A stretch of 64,000 bases of DNA, taken from the NCBI GenBank assembly GCA_017541305.1, contig JAFXZJ010000055.1:25778-89777 (forward strand), read 5' to 3'. The notes under the pieces were generated by a model. It searched no databases, was not told where the DNA came from, and saw only the letters and a list, made by a program, of their open reading frames with translations. The stretch is from Clostridia bacterium (GTDB lineage: Bacteria; Bacillota; Clostridia; Christensenellales; CAG-138). Positions 19,814-41,437 of this stretch are shown piece by piece (position 1 is the stretch's first letter; each line of letters starts with the position of its first letter). Made by a program: the position numbers and the translations under genes.

Positions 19814-19993
19814 CATTTGTAGATCTCCTTTATTGGTTTTGTCCACTCTGCATTTTCCCGGGCTTGTGACCGGTCGGCATAAACCGAGCTGCATTAGACG
19901 GGCGAGGTCGATTCCGTAAGACCTCGCCCTCAAGAGTATGAGGCACCACCAACCTGCCTCACCTCGTGCGCGGGCCGATCATGCCCGCATTGG

Positions 19994-20451: not shown

Positions 20452-21249
20452 ATGTTTGGAGCAATTTTGGGAGATATGATAGGAGCGCCGTATGAATTCG
20501 ACCGCGGGGATAAGACGAAGGATTTCCCGCTGTTCACTAAGGGCTCGGAATTCACCGACGATACCGTGATGACCGTTGCCGTTGCCGAAGCGCTGATGGA
20601 CACTCTCGGCGGCACGGACGACGAGATACGTGCGGTGATGATCCGCTCAATGCAAAAATGGGGACGCCGCTATCCCGCCGCCGGCTACGGCGCAAGGTTC
20701 ATCGGATGGGTCCGTTCCGACGATCCCACCCCTTACAACAGCTGCGGCAACGGCTCGGCCATGCGCGTTTCCGCCGCCGGCTGGCTTGGCGATACGCTCG
20801 GTGAGGTCCGCCGTCTCGCGCGGCTCTCCGCCGAGGTCACGCATAATCACCCCGAGGGCATAAAGGGCGCGGAAGCCGCCGCTTCCGCCATATTCCTTGC
20901 CCGCACCGGCAAAAGCAAGGCGCAGATCGAGGACTATATCACAAGCGAATTCGGCTATGATCTCTCCCGCACCTGCGACGAGATCCGTCCCGCCTACCGC
21001 CACGTGGAGATCTGTCAGCAGACCGTGCCCGAGGCGATCACCGCGTTCCTCGAGGGCGAAAGCTTTGAGGACGTGATCCGCACCGCCGTCTCGCTTGGCG
21101 GCGACTGCGACACGCTCACCTGCATCGCCGGAAGCATCGCCGAGGCATATTACGGCATACCCGACGAGCTCATACGGGCGGCTGAAAAACGCCTGACCCT
21201 TGACCTGCTCGCCGTGGAGCAGCGGCTTTACAAAACCATTTCGCGGTGA
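20452..21249 (+). CDS. ADP-ribosylglycohydrolase family protein
   Basis: MFGAILGDMIGAPYEFD...GNGSAMR...GGDCDTLTCIAG, typical ARH/DraG motifs. Confidence 0.8.
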   Translation: MFGAILGDMIGAPYEFDRGDKTKDFPLFTKGSEFTDDTVMTVAVAEALMDTLGGTDDEIRAVMIRSMQKWGRRYPAAGYGARFIGWVRSDDPTPYNSCGNGSAMRVSAAGWLGDTLGEVRRLARLSAEVTHNHPEGIKGAEAAASAIFLARTGKSKAQIEDYITSEFGYDLSRTCDEIRPAYRHVEICQQTVPEAITAFLEGESFEDVIRTAVSLGGDCDTLTCIAGSIAEAYYGIPDELIRAAEKRLTLDLLAVEQRLYKTISR

Positions 21250-27277: not shown

Positions 27278-27360
27278 GCAGATGTGGTGGAACGGCATAC
27301 ACAGCGGACTTAAAATCCGCCGGCGAAAGCTTGAGGGTTCAAATCCCTCCATCTGCACCA
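27278..27360 (+). tRNA. tRNA-Leu (anticodon TAA), CCA-encoded
   Basis: Acceptor stem GCAGATG/CATCTGC, anticodon loop CTTAAAA, long variable arm, T-arm GGTTCAAATCC, 3' ACCA. Confidence 0.8.
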
Positions 27361-27395: not shown

Positions 27396-27503
27396 ATATA
27401 TGAATGAAGGGATTTGAAGGGCGGGTCAGCGAAAGCAACGGTGTTGCGCTCCTGATAAGGATACATCACTAGAACAATAAGCACAGTATAAGGCAGAACG
27501 AAA

Positions 27504-27540
27504 TCGAGACAGGCAGCGGGCTTGTCTCGATTATCTTTTT
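27504..27540 (+). terminator. Intrinsic terminator-like hairpin
   Basis: TCGAGACA/TGTCTCGA stem followed by TTATCTTTTT. Confidence 0.35.
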
Positions 27541-27654
27541 AGAAAACATTTTTGCACATCCGTTAAAGCGTATCCGGTCTGCTATCGAATTTCCAAAAAG
27601 TCAAAGGAGGATGCCTTCCGGCATGCCAAACCGAAGATGTGCCCTCACATTAAT

Positions 27655-28170
27655 TCAGCTTCTGCTTCTGCTTTTGCCGAACAGCGCAAGCGCTGCAATA
27701 CTCACAACGACGGAAGCGATGATGATGATGATCGTCTTTCGCGAGAGTTGGCCTTTGCTCCAAAGTATAATAAGATACACGACGCCTGCGATCGCCGCAG
27801 CAGCGAAAAATACCGTCAGGATCAAAAGGGCTATCCCGATCTTTGTGTTTTTTTCATCCTCTCGCCTAACAAGCGCTCTTCGATGCTCTGCTTTTTCCTG
27901 CAGTTCCTTTAGCCGCTTTTCACATTCCGCCTGTTTCTCTCTTGCTCCGGAGACAAACGGAATTGAAGCTGTCAGACGGATCGCGTCCTCGCATCCCGCC
28001 GTTGTATTATGCTGCATCAAACGGTCCGCCTCCTGTAGGATCCTGCCGTACTTCCGTACGTCCGCCAAATCAGCGTCAAATGCATTTCCGCAGGAATCAC
28101 AGACCATAAGTCCGGACTCAATCACGATATGCATATCTCCCCCACAGATGGGGCAGACGAATGGTTTCAT
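27655..28170 (-). CDS. Zinc-ribbon (CPICG...CDSCG) membrane-anchored protein, 171 aa
   Basis: N-terminal double CxxC, helical linker, two C-terminal TM helices. Confidence 0.6.
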   Translation of the reverse strand: MKPFVCPICGGDMHIVIESGLMVCDSCGNAFDADLADVRKYGRILQEADRLMQHNTTAGCEDAIRLTASIPFVSGAREKQAECEKRLKELQEKAEHRRALVRREDEKNTKIGIALLILTVFFAAAAIAGVVYLIILWSKGQLSRKTIIIIIASVVVSIAALALFGKSRSRS

Positions 28171-28199
28171 TATTTCATCACCACTCCTTCTTAAACACT

Positions 28200-28670
28200 A
28201 AATTGATTTTGTTACAAGAGCCGGACCGCTGTTTTATTATTCGCGCGACCGCCTAACGGTGGATAAGGCAAGGGCTTCACCCGCTTAAGATCAGCGCCTT
28301 CGGCGAGCCTTTCAAGATAGATGTATTTTTCGTTGTCACTAAGCTGCTTTCGTGATCTATCAATAACGTATTCCTTGTTATTTTTATAAAGACTGATTAT
28401 GAATTTGCAGCCGTATTTTCTTACTGTCTTTTCTGAATAAACGTGCGGATTGACGCCGGTGCACAGACGTTCCGCCCTTCCAAAGAAGTTTCAAGTCATT
28501 ATAAAATGGTCCTTCTCCTTCTTATCCCAGGGCACATCTCTGTGATAGGAATCGAGCAATTCATTCAATGCATTCAGCGTTCTGTCACGCCTTAACAGAA
28601 TCTTGTCGACAACGCATGTGATGACGCCAATAAGTATCGAAACAGCCGTCAGTATTTCTCCGATGAGCAT
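28200..28670 (-). pseudogene. Decayed paralog of the small membrane protein at 32955..33431
   Basis: The intact 59-codon N-terminal ORF 28491..28670 (MLIGEILTAVSILIGVITCVVDKILLRRDRTLNALNELLDSYHRD) aligns to MELIGTGIAALSLMLTTATFIWDKLLSRKQRTLETLNKLKDSYHRE. Downstream DNA still encodes ...YVIDRSRKQLSDNEKYIYLERLAEG in another frame (compare YLIDQRRKQFKDDEYYISIERLAEKF). Confidence 0.5.
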
Positions 28671-28687
28671 TGTATGCCTCCATCTAA

Positions 28688-30328
28688 TTATGTAATCAGA
28701 ATCGCGATTGTGATTGCAGCAATAATGACTGCCGCAACAATCAAGAGGACAATCCTCTCCCTCTTGTTTTTCTTCTTTGCATTTATCTCTTCTTCTTCTT
28801 TCTCAGCTTTCAGAGACTCGATCTTTTTTCGGCAGATCTCTATCTGATGCTCCGAATCCTTCCATCCGGGAATCGACTCAAATATCTTGATGGCTTTTTC
28901 ATAATCGTCAATATAATGACTACCCATTTTGCTGAAAGCCGCATTATAGAAAGAATCCATATATACAGCATTGGCTTTTTCTCGGCAGTCCGCAGCACGC
29001 TGTTCGGCATCCTTGAATCCGTTGATGCCAAGAAATGCTTTTTCGGCCTGCTTAAAATCATATTCGGACTTAGCGCAATTTGCGAGACCGTCAGCCTTGC
29101 GATAAAGTATGGCATTATTATACCCTATAAGCTCATCTTGCAGCTTTTTATCACCAAAACGGAGTGCTTTTTTGTAATTACTGAGTTGTTCAAAAGCATC
29201 TGTGCGGGAAACAAGATCGGCTCTTGTTGTGACCTTGAGTTCCGCCATAAGCTTAGCAACATATGCTTCCGCATTCTCAGGATCCTGATCCAGCACCTTT
29301 TCGGCGTATTCGTCCGCGCTCTGCCACTCGCCATCCTCCAGATACATGAAAGCGCGCTTCAAAAGCGGCGCTATGTTCGCACTGCCGCCAGTGACCACGG
29401 TGGTTTCCTTTACGACCGGCTTCGATTCGCCGTCACGGACGATCTTCTTGATTCCGCGGATAAGATCCTGCATGAAGCCAAGCTTACTCATATCCTGAGC
29501 CTGCAGATGGGAGAACTCGTCGGGCAGATCGTAGGGATCCATATCGCGGTAGGCGGGGATGAGCACCTTCTTGCCGCCGCTCTGCTTGACAAGCGAAAGG
29601 TAGCGGCTCCATTCGTTCTTTACCCACACCGCTTTGAAATGCTCCGGCTTGGTGCCGAGCACGACCATGACCTTTGCGCTGTTCAGCGCGGCGAAAATAT
29701 AGGGCTCGTAGGCCGTGCCGAGCTTATCCTCCAGTGTGATGCGCGAGAAGAAGACCTTGAAGCCCTCCTGCGTGAGCTGATGGTAGAGGTCGTTCGCCAG
29801 CACGGAATCCATCGTTCGCCTGCCGTTTGCATCCGTTTCCTTATAGCAAATGAAAACATCGAACGGCTCTTCCTTCTGCGATATGGCAAGGATGCCCTTT
29901 TGAATCTCATTTATGGCGTTTGCTTCCGCTTCATAGAGGGATCGCTGATACCCGTCAGCGTACCGCAGGGCGGATTTGTAGTTGTCGTCATCAAAAACGG
30001 AAGTGAATTGCGCGCGGTTGACCGTAGGCATACGTTTGCGTGTCGCAGGATCTTCCACGTATTCGATACCGTAGCGGCAGAGCACCAGCGACCAGTAAGC
30101 CTCCGCGTCCGTCGTGTCCTCGTTCAGTATCTGCTCGTAGATCCCCGCAGCCTTGTCGAACTCGTTGTTCCGGCGAAAATGGTTCGCGCGGTCGTATAGA
30201 TTTTCCTTACGCTCGGAGTCAAGCTTTGGCAAAGTCTGCTTAGAACCACAGTACTCGCACTCCGCAACGGTAGAGCCCTTGTCGATGATCAGGTCGCCCC
30301 CGCACATTTTGCATTTGAAAATGGACAT
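28688..30328 (-). CDS. Zinc-ribbon-TPR-TIR-domain protein with C-terminal TM anchor (TIR paralog 1)
   Basis: N-terminal MSIFKCKMCGG...CEYCGS. TIR block FDVFICYKETD...FFSRITLEDKLG...AALNSAKVMVVLGT...AVWVKNEWSRYL. TPR-like helices. C-terminal IVLLIVAAVIIAAITIAILIT. Confidence 0.8.
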   Translation of the reverse strand: MSIFKCKMCGGDLIIDKGSTVAECEYCGSKQTLPKLDSERKENLYDRANHFRRNNEFDKAAGIYEQILNEDTTDAEAYWSLVLCRYGIEYVEDPATRKRMPTVNRAQFTSVFDDDNYKSALRYADGYQRSLYEAEANAINEIQKGILAISQKEEPFDVFICYKETDANGRRTMDSVLANDLYHQLTQEGFKVFFSRITLEDKLGTAYEPYIFAALNSAKVMVVLGTKPEHFKAVWVKNEWSRYLSLVKQSGGKKVLIPAYRDMDPYDLPDEFSHLQAQDMSKLGFMQDLIRGIKKIVRDGESKPVVKETTVVTGGSANIAPLLKRAFMYLEDGEWQSADEYAEKVLDQDPENAEAYVAKLMAELKVTTRADLVSRTDAFEQLSNYKKALRFGDKKLQDELIGYNNAILYRKADGLANCAKSEYDFKQAEKAFLGINGFKDAEQRAADCREKANAVYMDSFYNAAFSKMGSHYIDDYEKAIKIFESIPGWKDSEHQIEICRKKIESLKAEKEEEEINAKKKNKRERIVLLIVAAVIIAAITIAILIT

Positions 30329-30348
30329 ATTGTTCCCTCCGGATATAG

Positions 30349-31050
30349 TTATTTATTCAGTTTGCAAAGCCTGTTCCTCTCCGAAAGAACTGACTGGGCT
30401 TTTTTGCATAGCGGCATTATGCTCTCGTTATCGCCATCGACTATTGCGCGCTGAATCTCCTGCATCAGGGCGTTGAGCTCGCCTTCGGCTTCGGCTGTCG
30501 CGTCATTTGAAACGGGATCGCAGTAGTTGAGCGCGTCTGCAAGCTTTTTCAGTTCCGCCCTTGCCTCTTCGTTTTCGCAGCCGGCCGCAAGGCTGTTGCC
30601 GATAGAGCGAAGCTCCCGGATCTTCTCGACGTCCTTTTTCAATACCGTATCCTGCCGCTCGATCTCATCTCTTGTGGCGTCGGTCGCAACGGCCCCGAGG
30701 ATTGCTACGGCAAAGAGAAGAATGAACACAAGCACGAAAGGCCACGCGGGAATGCCGGGAATGGCAGCAAGGCCCATTGCAAGAAAGCTCAGTATCAGCT
30801 GTACCGTCGCATAGATACTACCAACGCGAGCGATCGGAAAACCGTAAAAGCGGCTCTTTGCCGAATCGCCCTTGCCGAAAGCAACTGCAAATATGAGCAG
30901 ACTTGTAAGTATCGCGAGAAGGCCAAACCCGTAGCCCACCCAGAACACGGAGTTGTGTTTGAAAGGAAGCACGAATGCAAGAACGTTATAAACGACCAGG
31001 ATTACTGCGACCGTGATGATCGCGCGTATCATTTTTTTGCTGAGCTTCAT
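30349..31050 (-). CDS. 4-TM membrane protein with cytoplasmic coiled-coil tail
   Basis: Hydrophobic N-terminal half and coiled-coil C-terminal half. Gene is adjacent to (1-bp gap) the SPFH gene. Confidence 0.55.
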   Translation of the reverse strand: MKLSKKMIRAIITVAVILVVYNVLAFVLPFKHNSVFWVGYGFGLLAILTSLLIFAVAFGKGDSAKSRFYGFPIARVGSIYATVQLILSFLAMGLAAIPGIPAWPFVLVFILLFAVAILGAVATDATRDEIERQDTVLKKDVEKIRELRSIGNSLAAGCENEEARAELKKLADALNYCDPVSNDATAEAEGELNALMQEIQRAIVDGDNESIMPLCKKAQSVLSERNRLCKLNK

Positions 31051-31051
31051 A

Positions 31052-32950
31052 TTATTCTCCCTTCTTAAAGCCGCAGTCCGGGCAGAACTTGCTTGTTATG
31101 TCCTTTGCTCCGCATTCCGGGCAGATCCAACCCTTTTTTTCCTCAGGCTTCTTCGCGCCGCAATTCGGGCAGAATTTTGATTTGATTCCATTCGTTCCGC
31201 ATTCGGGGCATGTCCAGCCTGCCGTCTCATCTGGCTTTTTTGCTCCGCATTCGGGACAGAATTTGCTTGATATGTTTGTTGTTCCGCATACAGGGCACGT
31301 CCAACCGACTTTTGGTTCCGGCTTCTTTGCCCCGCAGTCCGGGCAGAACTTGCTTGTTATGTTTCGGGTCCCGCATTCGGGGCACGTCCAGCCTGCAGGA
31401 ACAGGCGTGCCTTCTGCGACAGAGGTCTGCTCCTGGGCATTCGGGTTTATCCCATTCATTATATTGCCTATCTGCGGAGCCATTGCGCTCATTGCAGCCA
31501 TACCCACGCCAAGACCCATGATATCACCCATCACACTGCCTCCGCCGACGCTGACTCCAGAGCCCATGTTGCCGATGCCCTCGGCGTATGCCTTCTGAAC
31601 TTCCGTCTGCAGGACGTCCTTCTGGTTGTATCCCTTTGCGGCCATGATCTCCGCCTCGGTCAAGCCATGCACCCGCGCGGCCTGTGCTTCCGCCTGTGCC
31701 TCAATGATCTTGCGCTCAGCCTCACGCCTTGCGACCTCTGTCTTTGTCGTTTCCCCCTGCAGGACTGCTTCGCGCCTTGCCGCCTCGACCTGCGCCTTTG
31801 CCTGCTCCTCAACGGTCTTCACAGTCGCCTGTGCCTGAACCACGCGGGTCTGCAGAACGATGGTATGCAGTTCACGGATGCGCTTGAAATTCGGATCGTC
31901 CTCGGGAAGGACGATATGCGTAACATAAAGCTGCGGAACGGTGAGGCCGTACTCCTCAAAGCCCTCTGTTACCTTTTGACGGAGCGAATCGGAGATGATC
32001 TCCAGCTTTTCATCCACCTCGAGTATGTCGATATCATTCGTCTTTATTACCGTTGGTAGATTGGTTTTGACTGCGCTTGCTATCATCGGACGGAAGGAGG
32101 CCTGCAGGCTCTTTGTGAATCCGGCACTGTCGCGATCTTCCCAAGCGACGCCGCTCGTCGTTCCCACAAGCTTAATAAGCAGTTTCCTCGAATCGCCAAC
32201 GGCAATGTTCATTTCTCCAGATGCGCCGATCTCAAGAGGCGTCCCGGTCAGAGGATCGATGAAACGCACCTTATCAGGCGTACCCCATTTGATGGCCATC
32301 TGAACGGTCTTGTTTATGAAATAGATCTCGCTGTGGAAGGTCCTCTCCGCGTTTGTGGGAAGCTTATACAGCTTTTCGAGCATCGGCAGCTGCTGTGTCT
32401 CAAGCGTGTAACGGCCCGGCCCGAACAGGTCGAGCGCCTGTCCGTCACGGAAGAATACCGCTTCCTGACTTTCATGGACGATGAGCTGGGAGCCGTAGTT
32501 GAAGTCCTCAACGGGATGCTTCCAGATGAAGGTAGAGTTGTCGCCCTCGTACTTGATTATGGATGCAAGGCCCTCCGCCTTGATGCGCTCCTTCTCAACG
32601 CGCTCGGCGACGTCGTTGTCATGGTCGCACACGGGGCAGACGTAGTGCGAAGCGGCCTTCGAGGTCTGGAGCCGGACGCCGCACTGCGCGCAGGAGAACT
32701 CGACAGTCTTGTCCTGCTCTGCCATCGTATTGATGGGCTCATGGCAGACGGGGCATTTAGCGCCGGCACCCTTGGATTGATCAAATACCACGTTGTTCCC
32801 GCAGTGCGGGCAAACGCGGCTTGCCAGCTTGTCCGTGCGGACATCAATAGTATACCCGCACGCACAGCTGATCTTTTTACTTGCGAAGAACCCAGCCTTC
32901 GCCTCAGCATAGCGCCCGCAGTTGGGGCATTCGATTACGAATTTTGCCAT
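31052..32950 (-). CDS. Multi-zinc-ribbon SPFH/Band-7 (PF13421-like) protein with four tandem C-terminal zinc-ribbon repeats
   Basis: Three N-terminal CxxC pairs. SPFH core IIKYEGDNSTFIWKHPVEDFNYGSQLIVHESQEAVFFRDGQALDLFGPGRYTL. Coiled coil. Four repeats of GWTCPECGT..I.SKFCPDCGAKKPE. Confidence 0.75.
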   Translation of the reverse strand: MAKFVIECPNCGRYAEAKAGFFASKKISCACGYTIDVRTDKLASRVCPHCGNNVVFDQSKGAGAKCPVCHEPINTMAEQDKTVEFSCAQCGVRLQTSKAASHYVCPVCDHDNDVAERVEKERIKAEGLASIIKYEGDNSTFIWKHPVEDFNYGSQLIVHESQEAVFFRDGQALDLFGPGRYTLETQQLPMLEKLYKLPTNAERTFHSEIYFINKTVQMAIKWGTPDKVRFIDPLTGTPLEIGASGEMNIAVGDSRKLLIKLVGTTSGVAWEDRDSAGFTKSLQASFRPMIASAVKTNLPTVIKTNDIDILEVDEKLEIISDSLRQKVTEGFEEYGLTVPQLYVTHIVLPEDDPNFKRIRELHTIVLQTRVVQAQATVKTVEEQAKAQVEAARREAVLQGETTKTEVARREAERKIIEAQAEAQAARVHGLTEAEIMAAKGYNQKDVLQTEVQKAYAEGIGNMGSGVSVGGGSVMGDIMGLGVGMAAMSAMAPQIGNIMNGINPNAQEQTSVAEGTPVPAGWTCPECGTRNITSKFCPDCGAKKPEPKVGWTCPVCGTTNISSKFCPECGAKKPDETAGWTCPECGTNGIKSKFCPNCGAKKPEEKKGWICPECGAKDITSKFCPDCGFKKGE

Positions 32951-32954
32951 GGTT

Positions 32955-33431
32955 TTATTCCTCCGTTTGAATATTGTCTGTTGAATTTGTTTTTTCCGAC
33001 GGGCTGTTCGTCTCCTGCCCGTTTGCGGCGCCGCGCGATCTGCGGAATTTCTCGGCGAGCCTTTCTATGCTGATATAGTATTCGTCATCCTTGAACTGCT
33101 TCCTTCTCTGGTCGATCAGATACACCTTGAAATCATCGTATAATCTGATTATCAACCTGCTTCCGCTGCTCTTCACGGTGCGGTAGGAATAGTACCCCGA
33201 AAGAACGCCCGAGCAGAAGCTCTCAAGCTTCCCGAAGTAATTGACGCAGTTTCTGTAATAATCCGAATTATCCTTCCTGTTCCTTCCGGCGATCTCTCTG
33301 TGATAGCTGTCCTTGAGCTTGTTGAGCGTTTCAAGCGTCCTCTGCTTTCTCGAAAGCAGCTTATCCCAGATAAACGTTGCCGTCGTCAGCATGAGCGATA
33401 AAGCGGCTATACCGGTTCCGATCAGTTCCAT
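32955..33431 (-). CDS. Small N-terminally membrane-anchored protein (158 aa)
   Basis: One N-terminal TM helix and a charged C-terminus. Paralogous decayed copy at 28200..28670. Confidence 0.55.
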   Translation of the reverse strand: MELIGTGIAALSLMLTTATFIWDKLLSRKQRTLETLNKLKDSYHREIAGRNRKDNSDYYRNCVNYFGKLESFCSGVLSGYYSYRTVKSSGSRLIIRLYDDFKVYLIDQRRKQFKDDEYYISIERLAEKFRRSRGAANGQETNSPSEKTNSTDNIQTEE

Positions 33432-33472
33432 TTTTCCTCCTCTGTTTACAAGGCTTACAGCGTATTCGGCGG

Positions 33473-36145
33473 TCAGTTTTGCATTGCCCTTATCCGCGAA
33501 TCGAGCTGCGCTATCTCCGCCTCGAGCTCCCTTCTGCGCTTGCCGGTAAAGAGGCCCTTGAGGTTTTTGAGCTCCGCTTCGGCTTCGGCACGGCGCTTTA
33601 AAAGGGTCTCGAGCAGAAGCCTGCGCTCGTTTTCCGCACGCTCCGCGGCTTCCCGGCGCTCACGCTCTGCGCGCTCAGCGGCTTCCCGGCGTTCACGCTC
33701 TCTCTGCTCATCTTTGGACTTTTGCTCCTGTTCAAGAGTATCGATACCGTCGAAAAGCTTCCAGTCCTTTGTATTGCATTGTCCATAATCAAACCCATTA
33801 CTTTTCCGAGTCTCAATGTACTTAGTCGCAACAACGGTGCCGTCTGATTTCAATCCGACTGTTCGTCCTGGCGCCGCAAATACCGCGACAATATCCGTCC
33901 AGTTCTTGACGTTGCACTGACCGTTAGTATTACTTCCTGCAGCTACTACAGTTCCATCCTCCTTAAGGCCTACAATATGATAATCGGAATCATCCTTGTT
34001 AGCCCATCCGACATCACTGGATCCGGCAATCGATAGGATGCCTTTCCATTTTTTGACCTGTGAGAGGAACCCGAAGTCGTCGGAACACACAACACGTCCG
34101 TCCTCTTTTAAGCCGATGATGGACGAATACGGTTCGTCGTAGAAAACGGAAACAGCGATGATGTCCGCCCATTTTGAAACCCGGTTTTTAAGCTTGTTGA
34201 GACCTTTGACAATATCTTCATATTCTTCATCATCCTCATCGTACTCGATGGAGTGATACGGAGAGACGACGACCTTCTTATCGTTCTTTATACCGACGAT
34301 CAGATCATAGGTGCTTGCAACTGAAACAATATTATTCCAACTCGCAAACGCTTCTGTATCGTCTGGATCGGTAGAAACGACCGTTCCATCCTTTCTGATA
34401 CCGAATACATCAGATTCGGAGGCAAACACATCTGTAATATCACGCCAGGCGACGGTCTTAGTATCCCCGGCGCAAACAGCCGAACCGTCGTTTCTCAGTC
34501 CGATAAGGAATCTATCTCCGGCAGCTAACTTGACTATGCCTCGCCATTTATCAATGTCAAAACTCTTCTTCGAGGCGAAAGCAACCGTACCGTCGCCTCT
34601 TAATCCGGCGGTAAAACTGTTACCGGCAGCTATCGAAACGATGTCTGACCAATCGCCGACTTCGCATTGGCCATCATAGGAAGAATACAATTCGCCGCGC
34701 AGACGGGAATAATCGTTTTGGACATGTTCTTTGTATTTTGTGGCAAATACTTTACCTTGGATATTCAATGCGACCGTATGGTTTTTTCCACAGCAGACCA
34801 GGTTTTGAGCCGAAGCATACTTGGCTCTCAAATCGATAAGGCGCTGCTTCCCGGCAGCAATGCTTTTTTCTTCCTGCTCGATTCTTGCCTTCTCCCTATC
34901 TTTCTGTTCCTTTTCGATTCTTGAGAACCATTCGGCTGTCTCCTTGTCTGCGAAGCGTTTAGCGCGTTCGTATTCCTTTCCCTGTTGTATCAAGGAAGAA
35001 AAATTCTGCTCAAAATCTTCCTTAGACCTCACGTTTGCCTCTGCAAGCATAATGCCCAGATAGGCTCTGCTGTTCTCCGGGTCGATATCGAGCACCTTGT
35101 TGAAATATCCCTCGGCTTGCCCGAACTCGCCCTCCTCAAGGAAGAGCTGCGCCCGCTTGAGCAGCGAACCCACGCTCGGACCCGCGTCCGTCTGCTGTAT
35201 CACCTGCTGAATTATCCGCTGCTCCGACTGCGCCTTTTCGGGCTCGTCCTTTCCGATCACCTTTTTGATGCCGCGGATCAGGTCCTGTATAAAGCCGATC
35301 TTTGCCATATCATAGCTTTGCAGAACGGAGAGCTGCTCGGGAAGATCGTATGGATCCATGCCCTTGTAGCATGGCAAAAGGAGCTTTGAGCGATCCTTGC
35401 GCATCAGCGCGAGAAAACGGCTCCACTCGTTCTTGACCCAGACGGCGTTGAAATATTCCGGCTTCGAGCCGATCGCGATCATAACCTTTGCGGAATTGAG
35501 CGCGGCGAAGATATAGGGCTCGTACTCGGAGCCTACCTTATCCTCGAGCGTTATCCTCGAGAAGAACACGCGGTAGCCTTCGCTTGTGAGCTGATAGTAG
35601 ATCTCCTGCGCGTCGATGCTGTCCTTTGTACGCTCCTTGGTGTTGTCGTCGGTCTCCTTATAGCAGATGAAAACGTCGAAAGGCTCCTCGTTCTGCGAGG
35701 TGGCGAGTATGCCCTTCTGTACCTCCGCGATCTTCGCTCCGTCCTTCTGATACTGGCGGCGGGTGATGCCATCGGAGTTTTCGAGCGCGGCGATGTAATC
35801 CACGTCCTCAAGGAAGCTGTCAAAGCTCGCCCTGTGGCAGGTGGGGATGTATTCATACGTGTTCGGATCCTCAACGTACTCTATACCGAACCTGCACAGC
35901 GCGCAGCACCAGTGCGCCTCGGCGTCGGCGTCGTCCTCACGAACGATGTTCTCGTAGATCGCAAGCGCCTTATCGAATTCGCCCGCGCGCCTGAAATGAT
36001 TTCCCCTGTTGAACAGCGCCGCCCGCTGCTCGTCCGATACCTTAGGCAGAGTCATCGTCGACCCGCAGTATTCGCAGGTCCCAAAGGTCTTTTCTTCATT
36101 GAGGACTATGTCCCCACCGCACATTTTGCATTTGATAATCGCCAT
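33473..36145 (-). CDS. Zinc-ribbon-TPR-TIR protein with RCC1-like beta-propeller repeats and C-terminal ERERREAAERA coiled-coil (TIR paralog 2)
   Basis: N-terminal MAIIKCKMCGG...CEYCGS. TIR block FDVFICYKETDDNTKERT...AVWVKNEWSRFL. Seven to eight RCC1-like repeats such as GLKEDGTVVAAGSNTNGQCNVKNW. Duplicated ERERREAAERAE segment. Confidence 0.8.
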   Translation of the reverse strand: MAIIKCKMCGGDIVLNEEKTFGTCEYCGSTMTLPKVSDEQRAALFNRGNHFRRAGEFDKALAIYENIVREDDADAEAHWCCALCRFGIEYVEDPNTYEYIPTCHRASFDSFLEDVDYIAALENSDGITRRQYQKDGAKIAEVQKGILATSQNEEPFDVFICYKETDDNTKERTKDSIDAQEIYYQLTSEGYRVFFSRITLEDKVGSEYEPYIFAALNSAKVMIAIGSKPEYFNAVWVKNEWSRFLALMRKDRSKLLLPCYKGMDPYDLPEQLSVLQSYDMAKIGFIQDLIRGIKKVIGKDEPEKAQSEQRIIQQVIQQTDAGPSVGSLLKRAQLFLEEGEFGQAEGYFNKVLDIDPENSRAYLGIMLAEANVRSKEDFEQNFSSLIQQGKEYERAKRFADKETAEWFSRIEKEQKDREKARIEQEEKSIAAGKQRLIDLRAKYASAQNLVCCGKNHTVALNIQGKVFATKYKEHVQNDYSRLRGELYSSYDGQCEVGDWSDIVSIAAGNSFTAGLRGDGTVAFASKKSFDIDKWRGIVKLAAGDRFLIGLRNDGSAVCAGDTKTVAWRDITDVFASESDVFGIRKDGTVVSTDPDDTEAFASWNNIVSVASTYDLIVGIKNDKKVVVSPYHSIEYDEDDEEYEDIVKGLNKLKNRVSKWADIIAVSVFYDEPYSSIIGLKEDGRVVCSDDFGFLSQVKKWKGILSIAGSSDVGWANKDDSDYHIVGLKEDGTVVAAGSNTNGQCNVKNWTDIVAVFAAPGRTVGLKSDGTVVATKYIETRKSNGFDYGQCNTKDWKLFDGIDTLEQEQKSKDEQRERERREAAERAERERREAAERAENERRLLLETLLKRRAEAEAELKNLKGLFTGKRRRELEAEIAQLDSRIRAMQN

Positions 36146-36188
36146 ACTATTCTCCTATAGCAAATTAAGCATTTTAACACTGACTTTT

Positions 36189-36614
36189 CTAAACTCTACG
36201 ATCACGTTCTAAGTCTATTGCTATCTGCTCTGTCTCCTGAGTGGAACACTCAAAAACATACAGTTTATGTAACAGCTCCGAATCTGAAGGATAGGATGCA
36301 CCTCGTCTGTTAATTTCGATTTGTATTTCAGACTTAAGAGATTGGTTCTTAAAGAAAGTATCGTATAATTCGACTCTCTCTTTTGTCATTTGATCTTTGC
36401 TGTTAATGTACTCCTGCATTAGATCATGAAGAAATAACGGGTCATAAGCTTTAATGTTAGCAATTGTATCATCCGCCCTTTTAAGAGTATTATTCACATA
36501 ATTGGTGAACCTCTGAATGTTTTCAATGCCAAAGAACACAATCTTGCAATCATCACAAAGAAAAGCTTCGTTCTTCCATTCACACGGTTTATTGCAACTT
36601 GGGCAGTTATACAT
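36189..36614 (-). CDS. Small zinc-ribbon protein (CPSCN...CDDC), 141 aa
   Basis: Low-GC ORF between TIR paralogs 2 and 3. Confidence 0.45.
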   Translation of the reverse strand: MYNCPSCNKPCEWKNEAFLCDDCKIVFFGIENIQRFTNYVNNTLKRADDTIANIKAYDPLFLHDLMQEYINSKDQMTKERVELYDTFFKNQSLKSEIQIEINRRGASYPSDSELLHKLYVFECSTQETEQIAIDLERDRRV

Positions 36615-36760
36615 AATCTTTCCTCCTAAACGTATTATACTAATTAAGTTGTGTAACGCAAGTAGTAGCTTGAATCAGCATACCTATTATTGCCCTTTTT
36701 CTAACAAGCGGAAGCACAATCCTTCTTTACCAAACAGACGTTTTCATAAGCACATGCATT

Positions 36761-39196
36761 CTAATCTCCAACCTTATTATCTAACCTGACCCACATTGCA
36801 GGACGAATAGCAGCATAACCATAACCGTTATTGCCCGAAACTGAGCAATGAGGGCTAATCCAACCTTCATCCGTGACTTTTGTTGCTTTTGTTGGATCTT
36901 CACCCGGTGTTCTCAGCCACCATCCGATCCTTGCATCGTTAGCTTTTCCGCCAACCCATTTGGCCTTGCCATTTACGATTTTATATGGAGAAACATATGA
37001 GTTATAAGCTTCTGCCTCCGATATTGTATAATATGTTGGGGCACATAATCTTTCAGTTTCTGACCGATAATACTTCTCAACATCCAAGACGCTAAGAAGA
37101 AACACCTTGTCGGTTGTGCCTTTACCTGGGGTAGAACTATACTTAGGGTTTTTATCAGCAGAAACCTTAGATGCTACAATACGGCTACGTTCTTCCGAAG
37201 TAAATGCGGTGATATAGAAAGAATTATTCAGCCATTTTCTCAATGAGCAAGTTTCCCATGTAACGCTCGTGACACAAAAGTTATACTGCTTATAGTCTAA
37301 TGCATATTTGCTGATGAGTAGCATACAATCATTCTCTACTGCGTACACCTGCCACTCGATAGGTTCGGAAGGGCTCCCTTTTTTTTGAATGTATCTACCA
37401 AACATATACGAAATAGGCGGAGCTTCTGGAAAAAGCTCTTTCACTGCAAGAGCAACATCTCGCCTTTTTTTATAAATATCAAGTGCTTCATTATAGCTAT
37501 ATGCGCTTGTAGTATTGTTGTGATTTGTCTCAGATAGAGTTTCAAGTTTTTTCGCAAACGCGGTTGCTTTTTCAAGATCATGCTCGATTTCTTCTCTTGA
37601 TGCATAGCCTTGAAGTTTTGTTTCTAACTGGTTAAGTCGTGAACGAACGGAATCCTTCTTCCTCTCATAATCAGAAAGCAGATAATCTATTTGTTTCTTC
37701 TCTTTACCAGCAAAAATGCCGAGTTTTGATTTCTGCGCTGTAAGCTCTGTCTGCTTAGATGAGTAGTCGCGAATCTCATTATTCATCAGCCCAATCTGTT
37801 CCTTAATATCATCAAAACAGATTAGTATTCCTTTAATGAATTCTATTCTTTTATTCGCAGACGAAATGCGTTCCTTGAGAGTAGGCGCACTAGGATTTGC
37901 TCTCATGAGTGCATCAGCAACTAGCTCAACTATGTTGTTCTCTTTAAACGCCTCTTCATCTTTAATGCGTTCATTTATCACATCAATATAGTTGCTTAGT
38001 TCTGATACAATGCTTGGTTCACCAAAACGTGCTATTTTTAAATAATTATAGTTTCCTTCAAACGGTCTCTTGCATCCTGCAAGTTCTGTTTGATGGGATA
38101 CTCTCAACTCGGCCATCAGTTTCACGAGATAAGCTCTAGCATTCTCCGGTTCATAGTCAAGAACCTTTTCAGCATACTCGTCTGCGTTCTTCCATTCCCC
38201 GTCTTCGAGATACAGAAACGCACGGTTCAAAAGCGCAGAAGTATTTGCACCAGGCGAACTTTGGACAAACGAATGCACAGGAGCTATTTCTTTCGTATCT
38301 TCCTTTGGCAGCAGTTTCTTTATTGCACGAATAAGATCCTGATCTGCGCCGACCTTGCCCATATCCTGAGATTGGAGTTTCGAAAACTCTTTGGGCATAT
38401 CATATGCGTCGATATCCTTGAAGCAAGGAATGAGCCGTTTCGTCTTGTCCTTTTCCATGAGCTTGAGGAAGCGGCTCCATTCGTTCTTGACCCAGACCGC
38501 ATTGAAATACTCATAATCAGTTCCAAATACAAGCATGATCTTTGCGCTGTTGAGCGCAGCAAAAACATAAGGCTCATACTCCTGCCCGAGCTTGTCCTCC
38601 AGCGTTATCCTTGAGAAAAACACACGATAGCCGGCATCGTTCAGCTTATCGTAGATATCTTGCGCAAGCACTGAGTCTATGGTGCGCTGCCCGACCTCTG
38701 CCGTTTCCTTATAGCAGATGAAAATATCATAGGGCTCTTCTTTACCCGAAACTTCAATTATGCTTTTACGCAGTTCCTCTATCCGCTTGGCTTCCTCCCG
38801 ATAGACCTTACGGGAAAGAGCGTCGGAATTCTCCATGACTTGTTCAAAATCCTTGTCGTCCATCACGCTGTCAAAGCTCGAGCGGTGACAGGTCGGGATC
38901 TTTTTTCCTGTGGCAGGATCATCCACATACTCTATACCGTAGCGGCAAAGCACGAGACCCCAGTAGGCCTCTGCTTCCTCGGGAAAGTCCGCAACGACGG
39001 ACTCAAAAACACCGGCGGCCTTGTCGAACTCGCACGCCGCACGCAGCCTGTTCGCCCTCGCAAACAGCGTCATTTTTTTGTCATTATCAGCTGTGGGAAC
39101 TGTCTGAACGCTGCCGCAGTATTCGCATTCCGCTACTGTTGAGCCTTCCGTCAGGATCAGATCGCCTCCGCACATTTTGCATTTGATAATCGCCAT
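36761..39196 (-). CDS. Zinc-ribbon-TPR-TIR protein with long coiled-coil and C-terminal DUF6273-like domain (TIR paralog 3)
   Basis: Same N-terminus and TIR core as paralogs 1 and 2. C-terminal motifs IEWQVYAVEN...LRKWLNNSFY...KVFLLSVLDVEKYY...GWWLRTPGEDP...AIRPAMWVRLD. Confidence 0.8.
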   Translation of the reverse strand: MAIIKCKMCGGDLILTEGSTVAECEYCGSVQTVPTADNDKKMTLFARANRLRAACEFDKAAGVFESVVADFPEEAEAYWGLVLCRYGIEYVDDPATGKKIPTCHRSSFDSVMDDKDFEQVMENSDALSRKVYREEAKRIEELRKSIIEVSGKEEPYDIFICYKETAEVGQRTIDSVLAQDIYDKLNDAGYRVFFSRITLEDKLGQEYEPYVFAALNSAKIMLVFGTDYEYFNAVWVKNEWSRFLKLMEKDKTKRLIPCFKDIDAYDMPKEFSKLQSQDMGKVGADQDLIRAIKKLLPKEDTKEIAPVHSFVQSSPGANTSALLNRAFLYLEDGEWKNADEYAEKVLDYEPENARAYLVKLMAELRVSHQTELAGCKRPFEGNYNYLKIARFGEPSIVSELSNYIDVINERIKDEEAFKENNIVELVADALMRANPSAPTLKERISSANKRIEFIKGILICFDDIKEQIGLMNNEIRDYSSKQTELTAQKSKLGIFAGKEKKQIDYLLSDYERKKDSVRSRLNQLETKLQGYASREEIEHDLEKATAFAKKLETLSETNHNNTTSAYSYNEALDIYKKRRDVALAVKELFPEAPPISYMFGRYIQKKGSPSEPIEWQVYAVENDCMLLISKYALDYKQYNFCVTSVTWETCSLRKWLNNSFYITAFTSEERSRIVASKVSADKNPKYSSTPGKGTTDKVFLLSVLDVEKYYRSETERLCAPTYYTISEAEAYNSYVSPYKIVNGKAKWVGGKANDARIGWWLRTPGEDPTKATKVTDEGWISPHCSVSGNNGYGYAAIRPAMWVRLDNKVGD

Positions 39197-39217
39197 ATGA
39201 GCCTCCTATATGAACGT

Positions 39218-39409
39218 TTATTTTTCCGTTATCTCCATATGACGGAGCGCGAACTCCAACCCTAACAAAATGATCTCGTTTCGCGTGCGCCCGGTATCCT
39301 GCGCGACCTTATCGACGTCGTGCAGCATATCCTTTGGCATACGAACCGAGATCACCTGTGATTCCTCCGTGTATCTTTTCGGAGTTATTATCAGCTTCTG
39401 CTCTGTCAT
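39218..39409 (-). CDS. Ribbon-helix-helix (CopG/antitoxin-like) DNA-binding protein, 64 aa
   Basis: MTEQKLIITPKRYTEESQVISVRMPKDMLHDVDKVAQDTGRTRNEIILLGLEF. GGAGGT RBS precedes the ATG. Confidence 0.55.
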   Translation of the reverse strand: MTEQKLIITPKRYTEESQVISVRMPKDMLHDVDKVAQDTGRTRNEIILLGLEFALRHMEITEK

Positions 39410-39821
39410 GCAGTACCTCCGTGTCCTTGTTCCATTGTAACACAATTGTATTCTGTTTGCAATACCCAATTATATTTAATTTCGATTAATAGTCATTTTC
39501 CATCTCCGCTATGCAAGTATAAGGGCCACAGAGATCTACACTACTCTAAAAAACGCCCCGAAGCGTAGCTGCCAAAATCGATTTGCCTGAAAGTTGTGTT
39601 GAAATCTTCGATTCGCCTCATTACGGCATTAAATCGGTGTAATAGTGTGCAGCAGTCTACTTCTGCCTCGTCAACCCAAGATCATACTGCTGATAATCCG
39701 GCAGCTCATATTCCATACGGATATCGAACTGCGCGTGGTGCTTACTCTTCACCGGGGGATCGGGATTTGTCAGCGCACCCTTGCCGACTCAGTTGAACAA
39801 AAGTGTCATGCTATGTTGACG

Positions 39822-40166
39822 TCATTGCTTCTCAATAAAATCCGATAGTATCTTCAGCAGTTCGGGGACGTCGTTTTTGACGGTGTCATAAATGATGGTG
39901 AGATCAACACTGCCGTATTCGTGGACGATCCTGTTGCGCAGACCCTTGACCGCCCTCCACGGGATCTCCGTGTTCTGTGCTTTGAAATCCTCGGAAAGCT
40001 TGTCCGCGCTTTCCGAGACCTGAATAAGCCTGAACATGGCGGAGTCGGCCAAAACTTCGTCTTTTTCAAGCTCCTCTTTCGTAATACGCGCGGTGTGAGC
40101 GACGATGAAGCCAAGATCGTTAATGATCCGATTCACATAGTAGCGGTCATTTTTGACATTATCCAT
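39822..40166 (-). CDS. hepT: HepT-like (DUF86) RNase toxin
   Basis: RNRIVHEY motif (Rx4HxY). Overlaps the upstream mntA by 8 nt. Confidence 0.8.
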   Translation of the reverse strand: MDNVKNDRYYVNRIINDLGFIVAHTARITKEELEKDEVLADSAMFRLIQVSESADKLSEDFKAQNTEIPWRAVKGLRNRIVHEYGSVDLTIIYDTVKNDVPELLKILSDFIEKQ

Positions 40167-40629
40167 AGATCTTTATACCATCCTTCAATACTTCATTTAC
40201 AAGATCGGGGTTTTCGGCAAGCTGCGAATAAGAAAGCACATCCACCTTCTTCTTCAAGCCTTCTCGAAGAGCTTCCACGAGATCGTAGAACCGGATCCCG
40301 GAAACCTTTGTCGAGAGAAGCAGATCGACGTCGCTCTCTTCACCGGCTTTGCCTTTCGCATAAGAGCCGAAAAGATAGCAGTATTCGACTTCATAAGCCG
40401 GAAGTATCTCGGCGCATTTTTGAGTGATGGCCTCAATACTCAATACTCCATGGCTTTCGTCCATATACCCGTACTGCTCGAGCTTTTGGAAAATGTAAAG
40501 GTACTTGAAGGATGTGCGCTTCCTCTCATCGTTCTCGTAGTTTTGATATGTTCGCAAGGGCATTCCGAGGAAAGCAGCGCTTTCCGCCTGCGTCAACCCC
40601 TTGCTTTTTCTTAGTTCTTTTAGTGTCAT
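40159..40629 (-). CDS. mntA: MntA-like nucleotidyltransferase antitoxin with N-terminal XRE HTH
   Basis: HTH LKELRKSKGLTQAESAAFLG. NTase motif LFGSYAKGKAGEESDVDLLL. AGGTGA RBS before ATG at 40629. Confidence 0.8.
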   Translation of the reverse strand: MTLKELRKSKGLTQAESAAFLGMPLRTYQNYENDERKRTSFKYLYIFQKLEQYGYMDESHGVLSIEAITQKCAEILPAYEVEYCYLFGSYAKGKAGEESDVDLLLSTKVSGIRFYDLVEALREGLKKKVDVLSYSQLAENPDLVNEVLKDGIKIYG

Positions 40630-40906
40630 AGCATTCACCTCGGTATGATTATAGCATACTTGCGTCCGCTTCGCAAGCAACAATACGCAACAATTGCGCA
40701 TTATATGCAACAATTACACGCAATTGCTGCGTTTAATGTTGCATATTCGTGCGCAAAGGCTGCGTATATCGGCTGATTTAGCCTCACAGATTAGTTTTGC
40801 ATTATGCAGCCAAACGTATCCCCGTTGCTCCGCAAGAGCTCACATTTTTCATTCCCGTATCGCCATTTGGAATCAATTGCTAGCTAACGAAAGGATTCCC
40901 CGAGTT

Positions 40907-41046
40907 GTTTGGTTGCCCCATAGATTTACACTACTCTCAAACCTTCCCGGCGTACACCGCGACGTCCGCCGGTTTGAGTACCCCATAGATTTACACTACT
41001 CTCAAACTGATGCTGATAGTTATAGTATCGCCGAACTGTTTGAGTA
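40907..41046 (+). CRISPR. CRISPR-like remnant: two 36-nt repeats, 29- and 30-nt spacers, truncated third repeat; type II-like repeat termini
   Basis: GTTTGGTTGCCCCATAGATTTACACTACTCTCAAAC at 40907-40942 and GTTTGAGTACCCCATAGATTTACACTACTCTCAAAC at 40972-41007. Termini GTTTGAG/CTCAAAC are reverse-complementary. A partial repeat GTTTGAGTA at 41038 runs into the recombinase fragment. No cas genes in the window. Confidence 0.45.
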
Positions 41047-41234
41047 TCAAAGAGCTGACGCCCGAGCTTGTGAATACTCTCATCCGCCGAATCGAAATCC
41101 ATGAACCACAGCTAATCGACGGTCAGCGAACTGTAAACGTTGACATTTTCTTCACCGGCATCGGAATGTTCTCAGTACCCGATTCGGAAGAGCTGTCCGC
41201 TTTGATCGCCGAATTTTCCAAACATTCAGCATAA
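41044..41234 (+). pseudogene. 3' fragment of a large serine recombinase gene (last ~62 codons) plus conserved downstream hairpin
   Basis: [20 protein letters not shown]...[27 protein letters not shown] is about 85% identical to the C-terminus of 53342..55009. The next 60 bp (hairpin GGTGCAGGC..GCCTGCACC plus ACCCTCAAAAG) match 55010-55070. Confidence 0.65.
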
Positions 41235-41437
41235 AAAAACGGTGCAGGCCTTGAAAGCCTGCACCACCCCTCAAAAGGGATCCTTATACGGAACGTACCG
41301 TAAGACGGTTTTTCTCATTCTCTGTTCCTCCGGGGCGGATAGGTCTAATTTGACAGCGACGTTATTATACTATGCCCCAACCGCTGCTGTCAACAGGAAG
41401 AGAAAGCGCCGACCGTGTCAAGTTCTTCTGGGAGAAA

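Follow-up and report, generated by a model that had tools for sequence, protein, structure and literature searches.

Among the bacterial defence systems built on TIR domains, Thoeris loci combine one ThsA with several ThsB genes, and type II Thoeris has membrane-spanning ThsA effectors. In proteins that deplete NAD+ directly, the sensor is usually fused to the effector, and, to our knowledge, the known bacterial TIR systems all sense infection inside the cell. Outside this field, the SPFH protein YdjI of Bacillus subtilis needs YdjG and YdjH to reach the membrane (PMC8581546; PMC9239133), and DUF6273, which adopts a C-type-lectin-like (C-lectin) fold, is a target of diversity-generating retroelements (DGRs) in gut phages (PMC10743442; bioRxiv 10.1101/2024.10.15.618418; PMC11792537). 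Here, we analyzed a stretch of 64,000 nucleotides from a Clostridia bacterium (contig JAFXZJ010000055.1, positions 25,778 to 89,777), hereafter the window, and more specifically an array of ten open reading frames (ORFs), all on the minus strand, at window positions 27655-39469, which encodes three TIR proteins together with a zinc-ribbon SPFH protein and a protein with four transmembrane (TM) helices. We read the region as a TIR-based conflict system, most probably directed against phages, with several sensors, acting at the membrane and carried as cargo of an integrative element, a reading to which we give about an even chance.

The array shares with the bacterial TIR defence systems (Thoeris, Avs/bNACHT, SPARTA, and TIR-SAVED) a Glu at the catalytic position and a location in a mobile element or island. 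As in Thoeris, several variable TIR paralogs stand beside one invariant partner module and, as in the fused sensor-effectors Avs/bNACHT, SPARTA, and TIR-SAVED, a sensor domain is fused to the TIR domain. Nevertheless, there is no ThsA-type partner (SIR2, SLOG, or Macro), NTPase, Argonaute, or SAVED domain here; the TIR proteins are accompanied by an SPFH protein with zinc ribbons and a 4-TM protein that belongs to no known class, the TIR domain follows a zinc ribbon and TPR-like helices and, in the archetype of the family, a single-pass receptor is predicted with this domain on its cytoplasmic side. The array does not belong to Thoeris because no ThsA is present: Pfam finds no SIR2, SLOG, or Macro domain in the ten proteins, and PADLOC gives no Thoeris match.

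We numbered the genes from g10 to g1 in transcription order, and coordinates of genes and domains refer to the minus strand. The initial annotation, made from the letters of the DNA, had counted eleven same-strand genes in this interval; its ORFs, their strand, and their coordinates stand, while the number of genes is ten, in agreement with the gene calls on identical public metagenome contigs. The three TIR proteins are g9 (36761-39196, 811 aa), g7 (33473-36145, 890 aa), and g3 (28688-30328, 546 aa). All three match Pfam TIR_2 (E=1.4e-11 in g9, 5.2e-11 in g7, and 1.3e-11 in g3) and TPR families, with TIR domains located at about 38294-38731 in g9, about 35243-35680 in g7, and about 29426-29863 in g3. 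Their C-termini are different. The soluble g9 continues with a coiled coil and a C-lectin-like DUF6273 domain (36785-37333; E=1.6e-26), g7 with an RCC1-like propeller (RCC1_2, E=2.4e-19; region at about 33746-34804) followed by a C-terminal coiled coil, and g3 with helical repeats and a TM segment at the very C-terminus (residues 522-546, 28691-28765), beyond which there is nothing. This segment, flanked N-terminally by a stretch rich in Lys and Arg, is the only hydrophobic segment of g3, and g7 and g9 have none. The recognition of three zinc-ribbon-TPR-TIR paralogs with divergent ends by the initial annotation is thus borne out, including the motifs that it quoted, in contrast to its description of the shared cores as near-identical: pairwise identity among the paralogs is 57-60% over residues 1-300 and 63-67% within the TIR domain. 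Each paralog type has relatives above 80% identity in other genomes and represents a distinct subtype that is kept elsewhere, with median identities of 84% for the g3 type, 82% for the g7 type, and 66% for the g9 type.

The assignment of the central block to the TIR fold, on which the initial annotation depended, holds at the level of profile searches, structure prediction, and motif alignment. In the AlphaFold2 model of g3 (predicted local distance difference test score of 85), a zinc ribbon (residues 1-35) is followed by helices and a β-hairpin (39-152), a TIR fold (155-300), a disordered linker, helical repeats (319-490), and a long helix ending in the TM segment. When searched as a whole with Foldseek, this model is swamped by TPR proteins, and the informative part consists of the local TIR matches, which include SARM1 (9mw1_B, probability 1.0, target-normalized TM-score 0.62), RUN1 (7rx1), and MyD88 (7beq, target-normalized TM-score 0.75). 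A phmmer search against the PDB aligns the segment W235-V-K-N-E239 of g3 with WCQYE in the TIR domain of a Toll-like receptor (7ylf) and with WTEYE in a bacterial TIR domain (7uxr). We take the aligned E239 position to be that of the catalytic Glu of TIR NAD+ glycohydrolases (NADases), such as E642 of SARM1. E239 is invariant in 60 sequences of the family, and 145 of 147 cluster representatives have the WxxxE motif; in the window, the corresponding codons lie at 29612-29614 (g3), 35426-35428 (g7), and 38480-38482 (g9). It is therefore plausible that these TIR proteins are competent NADases.

Across the family, a constant N-terminal half is combined with very different C-terminal halves, as the initial annotation had proposed from the three paralogs. 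When 1.84 billion cluster representatives were searched exhaustively with HMMER, 4,060 proteins matched the 300-residue core at E≤1e-30 (a word-indexed search yielded at least 8,000 candidates), and the core is always N-terminal (residues 1-297) in proteins of 293 to 3,073 aa. The representatives stem from clustering at 50% identity, and yet their cores share 62-94% identity with g3; this multiplicity therefore reflects the C-terminal parts, among which we find DUF6273/C-lectin, RCC1, BspA-type leucine-rich repeats (LRR_5), Listeria-Bacteroides repeats (Flg_new), InlB B-repeats, Lectin_C, and GLUG domains. The core of g3 is 80-89% identical to proteins from other families of Clostridia. Comparison of 29429-30328 with four related loci (L004, L005, L007, and L008; L-numbers designate loci of relatives and P-numbers, such as P0317, proteins of the family) gives 87-89% identity at the protein level and 45-55% at third codon positions, indicating that the TIR core is under strong purifying selection. 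Recent horizontal transfer, considered as the source of the 80-90% core identity, was rejected, as synonymous sites are near saturation.

When the g3 core was used to scan species-representative genomes, at least 581 relatives were detected, nearly all of them metagenome-assembled genomes of gut or rumen Clostridia, distributed over Oscillospiraceae, Ruminococcaceae, Lachnospiraceae, Acutalibacteraceae, Anaerovoracaceae, and other families. In the 79 genome loci anchored on the TIR gene, an SPFH core occurs near it in 60 and a g4 homolog in 52, many of the loci lacking them being short contigs, and the gene order is fixed on one strand, SPFH, 4-TM, and then TIR. Searching metagenome contigs from the 4-TM side, we found the SPFH gene directly upstream in 57 of the 59 loci with enough flanking sequence. 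Where each flank extended to 4 kb or more, at least one complete TIR core was present in 22 of 23 loci, and the 23rd ends at a contig edge. A single SPFH/4-TM pair accompanies one to three TIR paralogs of distinct conserved subtypes, and the layout of the window (ribbon-helix-helix (RHH) gene, TIR, accessory gene, TIR-RCC1, accessory gene, SPFH, 4-TM, TIR) recurs in varied form in L109, L116, L121, L137, and L141. The SPFH, 4-TM, and TIR genes thus form, by their synteny, a conserved cassette, and the co-localization on which the initial annotation staked its proposal is almost obligatory among homologs. The two partners are conserved well below the TIR core, at 43-79% for the SPFH protein and 22-52% for the 4-TM protein. 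Two variations of the cassette were noticed: the SPFH protein of L175 (1749-2891) has a SHOCT domain at its end in place of the zinc ribbons, and an HTH_17 protein of about 170 aa is encoded between the cassette genes in L083 (9473-9985) and L112 (2265-2780).

In the window, the flotillin-like SPFH protein is g5 (31052-32950, 632 aa), which matches Band_7_1 (E=2.4e-36), DZR (E=6e-15), and Zn_ribbon_3 and contains 13 CxxC motifs and no hydrophobic segment. N-terminal zinc ribbons (32591-32950) precede the Band_7_1 domain (31898-32509), which is followed by a coiled coil, a low-complexity stretch rich in Gly and Met, and four tandem zinc ribbons of 29 aa at the C-terminus (31055-31393, encoded by 87-nt tandem repeats). 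Its neighbor g4 (30349-31050, 233 aa) has four TM helices followed by a cytosolic four-helix bundle and matches no family in Pfam or NCBIfam; its best conserved features are the loop between TM2 and TM3 (RSKFYGFPIAR), a DPVS motif, and the C-terminal ERNRLCKLNK. Both proteins had been described in these terms, a zinc-ribbon SPFH protein and a 4-TM protein between the paralogs, in the initial annotation.

The pairing of a single SPFH/4-TM module with several TIR paralogs fits well with a Thoeris-like wiring, in which the variable TIR paralogs turn NAD+ into a small signal molecule and the shared SPFH/4-TM effector, on receiving it, damages or depolarizes the membrane. This pairing mirrors the Thoeris loci in which several ThsB genes accompany one ThsA; the strongly conserved cytosolic motifs of the 4-TM protein and the obligatory presence of the pair would also be accounted for. 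Nevertheless, among known signal-binding domains, SLOG, Macro, SAVED, STING, and CARF included, Pfam detects none in either g4 or g5, and the TIR proteins possess large sensor domains of their own. We regard this wiring as the main mechanistic rival, and as unlikely.

The SPFH protein also invites comparison with the PspA-YdjGHI (SamGHI) module, whose resemblance to the array had already been pointed out in the initial annotation. The likeness lies in an SPFH protein of the Band_7_1 family that is soluble, ends in a zinc finger, and has membrane proteins as its genomic neighbors, and perhaps in a zinc-ribbon TM protein that may correspond to YdjG. In contrast, PspA-YdjGHI is a sigma-W stress operon, whereas the cassette here is accessory and mobile and has no PspA, its zinc-ribbon proteins bear TIR domains and hypervariable ends, and no relation of its 4-TM partner to any family is detected. 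Membership in YdjGHI appears to extend to the SPFH protein only. A corresponding explanation of the whole array, as an envelope-stress module in which the SPFH protein and its membrane partner monitor or stabilize the membrane and the TIR proteins serve as YdjG-like anchors with the TIR domain as a mere scaffold, could draw on the family and layout that g5 shares with YdjI (soluble Band_7_1, low-complexity stretch, C-terminal zinc finger; PMC8581546) and on g1 and g3, which are zinc-ribbon proteins with C-terminal TM helices, YdjG itself being a zinc-ribbon TM protein (PMC9239133). However, a PspA/IM30 gene is absent from the array and from the annotated related loci, g4 has no detectable family, the locus is strain-variable, and a conserved Glu, hypervariable C-termini, and targeting by DGRs would be unexpected of a housekeeping stress module. 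We therefore consider this explanation very improbable.

Most members of the family differ from the window copies in that they continue beyond a TM segment. Of the 147 representatives, 112 (about 76%) contain a single internal hydrophobic segment, some 30 residues long, at a median position of residue 543, preceded by a stretch rich in Lys and Arg and followed by a median of 327 further residues (maximum 2,438). Similarly, 110 of the 165 complete ORFs from the loci have a hydrophobic segment with more sequence after it. In the members checked, this further sequence contains domains usual in surface proteins (LRR_5, Flg_new, Lectin_C, or DUF6273). A topology with the N-terminus inside and the C-terminus outside is predicted, as the zinc ribbon and the TIR domain require a cytoplasmic location, signal peptides are lacking, and positive charges lie N-terminal of the segment. 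We infer that the archetype of the family is a single-pass transmembrane receptor with extracellular C-terminal domains, an arrangement that would set it apart from the known bacterial TIR systems. In giant members (P0317 with 3073 aa, P0370, P0386, P0266, and P0271), the N-terminal TIR core and one predicted TM helix are followed by long arrays of Listeria-Bacteroides repeats, BspA-type leucine-rich repeats, an InlB B-repeat, Lectin_C, and GLUG domains, an overall plan that looks like an inverted Toll-like receptor.

The archetype, as opposed to the window copies, is indeed similar to animal Toll-like receptors in being single-pass, with a ligand-binding ectodomain (made of leucine-rich repeats in some members) and a cytoplasmic TIR domain. 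The order is inverted, however, with the TIR domain N-terminal and the ectodomain C-terminal (type II topology), the leucine-rich repeats are BspA-type, the conserved Glu suggests an enzymatic rather than an adaptor output, and there is no sign of common descent beyond the TIR domain. The window proteins do not show the plan of ectodomain, TM helix, and TIR domain, as g3 ends at its TM segment and g7 and g9 have none; no window copy has an ectodomain. This archetype escaped the initial annotation, and the three copies from which it was made appear to be atypical, ectodomain-less forms. They are not isolated cases. Tail-anchored forms like g3 account for 10 of the 120 closest relatives. Among g7-type cores, 21 of 25 lie upstream of the SPFH gene and 18 of 25 carry RCC1, most of these relatives having a TM segment at about residues 563-594, which g7 lacks. 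Full-length relatives of g9, also TM-less C-lectin proteins, are found at about 44% identity in L163, L105, L033, and L102, indicating that they constitute a conserved subtype.

The C-lectin end of the TIR proteins is hypermutated by DGRs in seven relatives (L010, L034, L036, L037, L044, L052, and L083), as judged from their repeat pairs. In these loci, the last ~125-160 nt of a gene encoding a TIR-TM-DUF6273 protein pair with a template repeat (TR) located ~500-700 bp downstream of the last variable repeat (VR), and each TR/VR pair shows 17-26 mismatches, 81-100% of which fall at TR adenines. The VR and the TIR core belong to the same ORF, with the VR at its 3' end, and in L044 one TR matches the VRs of two TIR paralogs. 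L010 (9986-14477) has the full set of bAvd, TR, and reverse transcriptase (RT), and RT homologs follow the TR in five loci. Every protein targeted in this way is of the TM type. In the window, repeat finding, an adenine-bias filter on self-BLAST matches, an RT motif scan, and tblastn with the RT of a relative detected no DGR.

The nearest concept is that of the conflict systems with DGR-diversified C-lectin (FGS) domains (Kaur et al. 2020; Doré et al. 2024; PMC7159879; PMC10907252), to which the relatives, not the window, are similar in having a C-terminal C-lectin domain on an effector-domain protein hypermutated by an adjacent Avd-TR-RT set; the idea of anticipatory diversification of an immune sensor would be common to both. 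Those systems use STAND or MoxR-vWA NTPases, occur in cyanobacteria and proteobacteria of multicellular habit, and have targets discussed as cytoplasmic, whereas the proteins described here come from gut Clostridia and have the SPFH/4-TM pair instead of an NTPase as partner, with the lectin of the DGR-targeted forms located beyond a predicted TM helix and no DGR in the window. Phage DUF6273 targets of DGRs (tentaclins and Mtd-like receptor-binding proteins) have the same C-lectin-like scaffold and a C-terminal VR in the same frame (WWLRSPG...VRPALW). They are, however, virion proteins that bind host surfaces, while the proteins described here are cellular TIR proteins with two matches in viral contigs.

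The predicted ectodomains and their diversification could serve purposes other than immunity, and non-immune surface sensing or adhesion is the main functional rival. In this explanation, the proteins would be surface receptors for host glycans, food particles, or other cells, DGRs would widen the range of ligands as they do for other cellular targets, and the TIR/SPFH/4-TM side would relay contact into a physiological response. An internal TM helix followed by BspA-type leucine-rich repeats, Listeria-Bacteroides repeats, Lectin_C, GLUG, or DUF6273 domains fits this explanation, as does the description of most cellular DGR targets as membrane-anchored binders of extracellular substrates (PMC8144416). 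It is also consistent with the restriction of the family to gut and rumen Clostridia, with the presence of several loci among housekeeping genes, and with a core conserved like a housekeeping protein. Less easily explained are the near-universal retention of the Glu at the catalytic position, the lack of ectodomains in the window copies, and the conserved soluble C-lectin subtype, which implies that part of the sensing is cytoplasmic. The window copy is, in addition, strain-variable mobile-element cargo beside a toxin-antitoxin pair, and the neighbors of relatives include AbiH, restriction-modification, WYL, and Fic genes. Taken together, we consider surface sensing or adhesion quite unlikely.

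The genomic setting of the array is that of a mobile element. The initial annotation had placed it in an island borne by a tRNA gene, and this island is real and can now be delimited. Sibling-strain contigs (L168-L170) share the left flank and the tRNA-Leu(taa) gene (27278-27360, plus strand; ARAGORN) and lack the array. Their blastn alignments to the window break at 27447 and 55073, which defines a strain-variable insertion of 27,625 bp (27448-55072), 87 bp from the tRNA gene, with a 7-bp GTGTTGC repeat at 27441-27447 and 55066-55072. Comparison of the junctions shows that the insertion splits a palindrome downstream of tRNA-Leu. An att repeat of the tRNA 3' end was sought and is absent from the window; the real junction is the 7-bp repeat in this palindrome. 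Inside the insertion, the C-terminal remnant of a recombinase (the end of DUF4368) at 41010-41234 is followed by an attR-like end at about 41279-41301 similar to the true right end; more specifically, 41010-41301 and 54820-55074, which comprise the end of a large serine recombinase gene and downstream sequence, are 85-88% identical, and an intact serine recombinase gene lies at 53318-55009. The remnant and the attR-like end suggest that the insertion probably consists of two serine-recombinase elements in tandem, with the array and the adjacent HepT/MntA genes probably in the first, decayed element (27448 to about 41301) and the intact recombinase in the second. A phage origin was rejected, as only two relatives occur among the 2.9 million viral contigs of IMG/VR and the PHROG matches are limited to the RHH repressor and weak matches to zinc ribbons, and a plasmid origin was rejected, as megablast of 27400-41300 against PLSDB gave no match.

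The HepT/MntA pair (39822-40713), a HEPN toxin with a nucleotidyltransferase antitoxin and a helix-turn-helix domain, is the immediate upstream neighbor of the array, shares its strand, and was correctly named in the initial annotation, according to precomputed Pfam matches. A UPF0236 transposase gene (41438-42877) follows the recombinase remnant. At a boundary between two integrative elements, two ParB_N copies flank convergent large serine recombinase genes (53318-55009, plus strand, and 55237-56967, minus strand), these copies being contained in an inverted duplication (51794-53057 and 57197-58463, 86-90% identical). A neighboring element, also present in the sibling strains, encodes a Schlafen AlbA_2 and HATPase_c_4 protein beside a VanY carboxypeptidase (60548-62011). 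Elsewhere in the window, 150-bp direct repeats (17682-17831 and 20451-20600, 99% identical), which correspond to the 5' part of an ADP-ribosylglycohydrolase gene, surround a ~2.6-kb segment of low GC content (about 43-46%), and this small cassette appears to have been inserted with duplication of its target. A 67-nt unit is repeated four times in tandem at 19979-20240; at these repeats, the alignment to L168 has an overlap of 240 nt on the window side and 171 nt on the L168 side, and the copy number probably differs between strains.

The remaining genes of the array are regulatory or accessory. The gaps between g10 and g2 are only 1-146 bp, and g1 follows after 320 bp. The first gene of the operon is g10 (39218-39409), which encodes a CopG-type RHH repressor (RHH_1, E=1.4e-4, and Arc in Pfam; transcriptional repressor in PHROG, E=4e-6) of 63 aa from its ATG, as on the public contigs, or 83 aa from a TTG at 39469. 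A sigma-70-like promoter candidate upstream of it (39496-39469, minus strand), found by consensus match only, reads ATGACT-16-TATAAT with 10 of 12 matches. The RHH gene therefore opens the array at its 5' end and does not close it, as had been stated. It is the first gene in 12 of the 79 TIR-anchored loci and in 13 of the 23 4-TM-anchored loci with full flanks. Among the accessory genes, g8 (36189-36614, 141 aa) has an N-terminal CxxC...CxxC motif and no match in Pfam, PADLOC, NCBIfam, or PHROG, and g6 (32955-33431, 158 aa) encodes a DUF4760 protein (E=6.6e-13) with an N-terminal hydrophobic helix. The g2 gene (28491-28670, 59 aa) has no Pfam match; BLASTP relates it to the N-terminal part of g6 (E=4e-13, 46% identity over 46 aa), of which it is a truncated paralog and probably a remnant. 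Finally, g1 (27655-28170, 171 aa) combines a zinc ribbon, one helical repeat, and two TM helices (hydrophobic segments at residues 108-168) and resembles g3 without its TIR domain, matching its N-terminal ribbon (E=5e-5) and one of its C-terminal helical repeats (E=0.003); its best Pfam match, Zn_Ribbon_TF, stays below threshold (22 bits, cut-off 29). The array is a mosaic in GC content, ~39-43% over g9 and g8 (36000-39000) versus ~54% over g5 and g4 (30000-33000), which suggests that the paralog modules were assembled from different sources.

As none of the 79 related loci contains g1, g2, g6, g8, or HepT/MntA, we dropped them from the core system and regard them, on this distribution, as local additions. 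The view in the initial annotation that the small proteins belong to the system thus stands for the 4-TM and RHH proteins, which are conserved, and not for the others. The same observation bears on a reading of the array as polymorphic toxin cassettes, with a conserved trafficking N-terminus, swappable C-terminal toxins, and g8, g6, and g2 as small immunity genes. A constant N-terminus with a variable C-terminus and the small gene that follows each TIR gene in the window are reminiscent of such cassettes. The C-terminal domains are, however, binding modules (C-lectin, RCC1, leucine-rich repeats) and not toxin folds, the N-terminus is a zinc ribbon without secretion signal, the only enzyme-like domain lies in the constant part, and the small genes are not conserved. 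We rejected this reading on these grounds and see next to no chance that it is correct.

In the mechanism we propose for a TIR-based conflict system, there would be three kinds of parts: one or more sensor-effector proteins, a membrane module that they share, and a repressor. Each sensor-effector would consist of a constrained cytoplasmic N-terminal half (zinc ribbon, TPR-like helices, and TIR domain) and an exchangeable C-terminal binding domain, which in the archetype would lie beyond the single TM helix, outside the cell, while in the window the RCC1 domain of g7 and the C-lectin domain of g9 would face the cytoplasm and g3 would be tail-anchored. The shared module would be the soluble zinc-ribbon protein g5 docked on the 4-TM protein g4, a role as membrane anchor that we assign to g4 by analogy, as g5 is soluble with the layout of YdjI and YdjI is membrane-bound only through YdjG and YdjH. 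Binding of a ligand derived from the invader by the variable domain would cause the TIR halves to cluster on the SPFH/4-TM platform, perhaps via the zinc ribbons present in all partners, and the clustered TIR domains would turn into active NADases. The resulting collapse of NAD+ would lead to arrest or death of the infected cell (abortive infection). We put forward this particular chain of ligand binding, clustering, NAD+ cleavage, and abortive infection tentatively, as one that may well need revision. A further version, which we consider doubtful, is that of a bacterial outside-in counterpart of Toll-like receptors, in which a surface ectodomain (C-lectin, leucine-rich repeats, or propeller) that can be diversified by DGRs would recognize phages or other invaders at or before adsorption and signal through the TM helix to a cytoplasmic TIR NADase on the SPFH/4-TM platform. 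Soluble paralogs of the g7 and g9 types would watch the cytoplasm, and strains of gut Clostridia with a DGR would hold, at the level of the population, an anticipatory repertoire of immune receptors.

Several observations favor a role in conflict. Besides the TIR fold with its Glu, the conserved cassette, the hypervariable ends, and the DGRs of relatives, the array is a strain-variable insertion, HepT/MntA is adjacent to it, and the neighbors of relatives are of mobile or defence type (integrases, AbiH, a restriction-modification S subunit, WYL regulators, Fic, MobA relaxase, and TnpV). A number of others weigh against it. Some relatives lie among housekeeping genes, with no mobile or defence neighbors, and at least one TIR gene is solitary. 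The PADLOC v2 models match none of the ten proteins, PADLOC-DB v2.0.0 giving only two chance-level matches (a zinc ribbon to Cas12u1, 0.0038; g6 to AbiH, 0.0068), and the sole defence-related NCBIfam match, ThcB4, reaches 25.5 bits where the cut-off is 220. In the archetype, the ectodomains are of types (BspA-type leucine-rich repeats, Flg_new, and C-lectin) typical of adhesins, such strong purifying selection on the core is unusual for immune proteins, and no nucleotide-binding or pore domain is recognizable in g4 or g5. Furthermore, the TM calls and the outward orientation come from a hydropathy scan and flanking charges alone. On balance, we lean slightly towards a conflict or defence role, the anti-phage function of this array being our interpretation of its domains and setting.

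The initial annotation had judged that this architecture is not a described defence family, and we agree, on the strength of PADLOC-DB v2 and our literature searches. In the literature, of which our coverage was incomplete so that a prior description is possible, we found no description linking TIR domains with SPFH proteins, or of DGR-targeted TIR proteins in Clostridia, and Roux et al. 2021 make no mention of TIR. The SPFH-4TM-TIR cluster is thus apparently an undescribed, very large gene cluster of gut Clostridia, which would extend a known kind of system, the TIR conflict systems, with new partners and a new architecture. TIR domains are a shared currency of immunity in animals, plants, and bacteria. 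If the cluster is indeed immune, it would add a membrane-scaffolded class to TIR defence, give bacterial SPFH proteins a role beyond the control of stress and proteolysis, and make the anticipatory diversification of receptors tractable in dominant commensals of the gut. Otherwise, it would still represent an abundant, unrecognized device of the gut microbiota for signaling from the surface to the cytoplasm.

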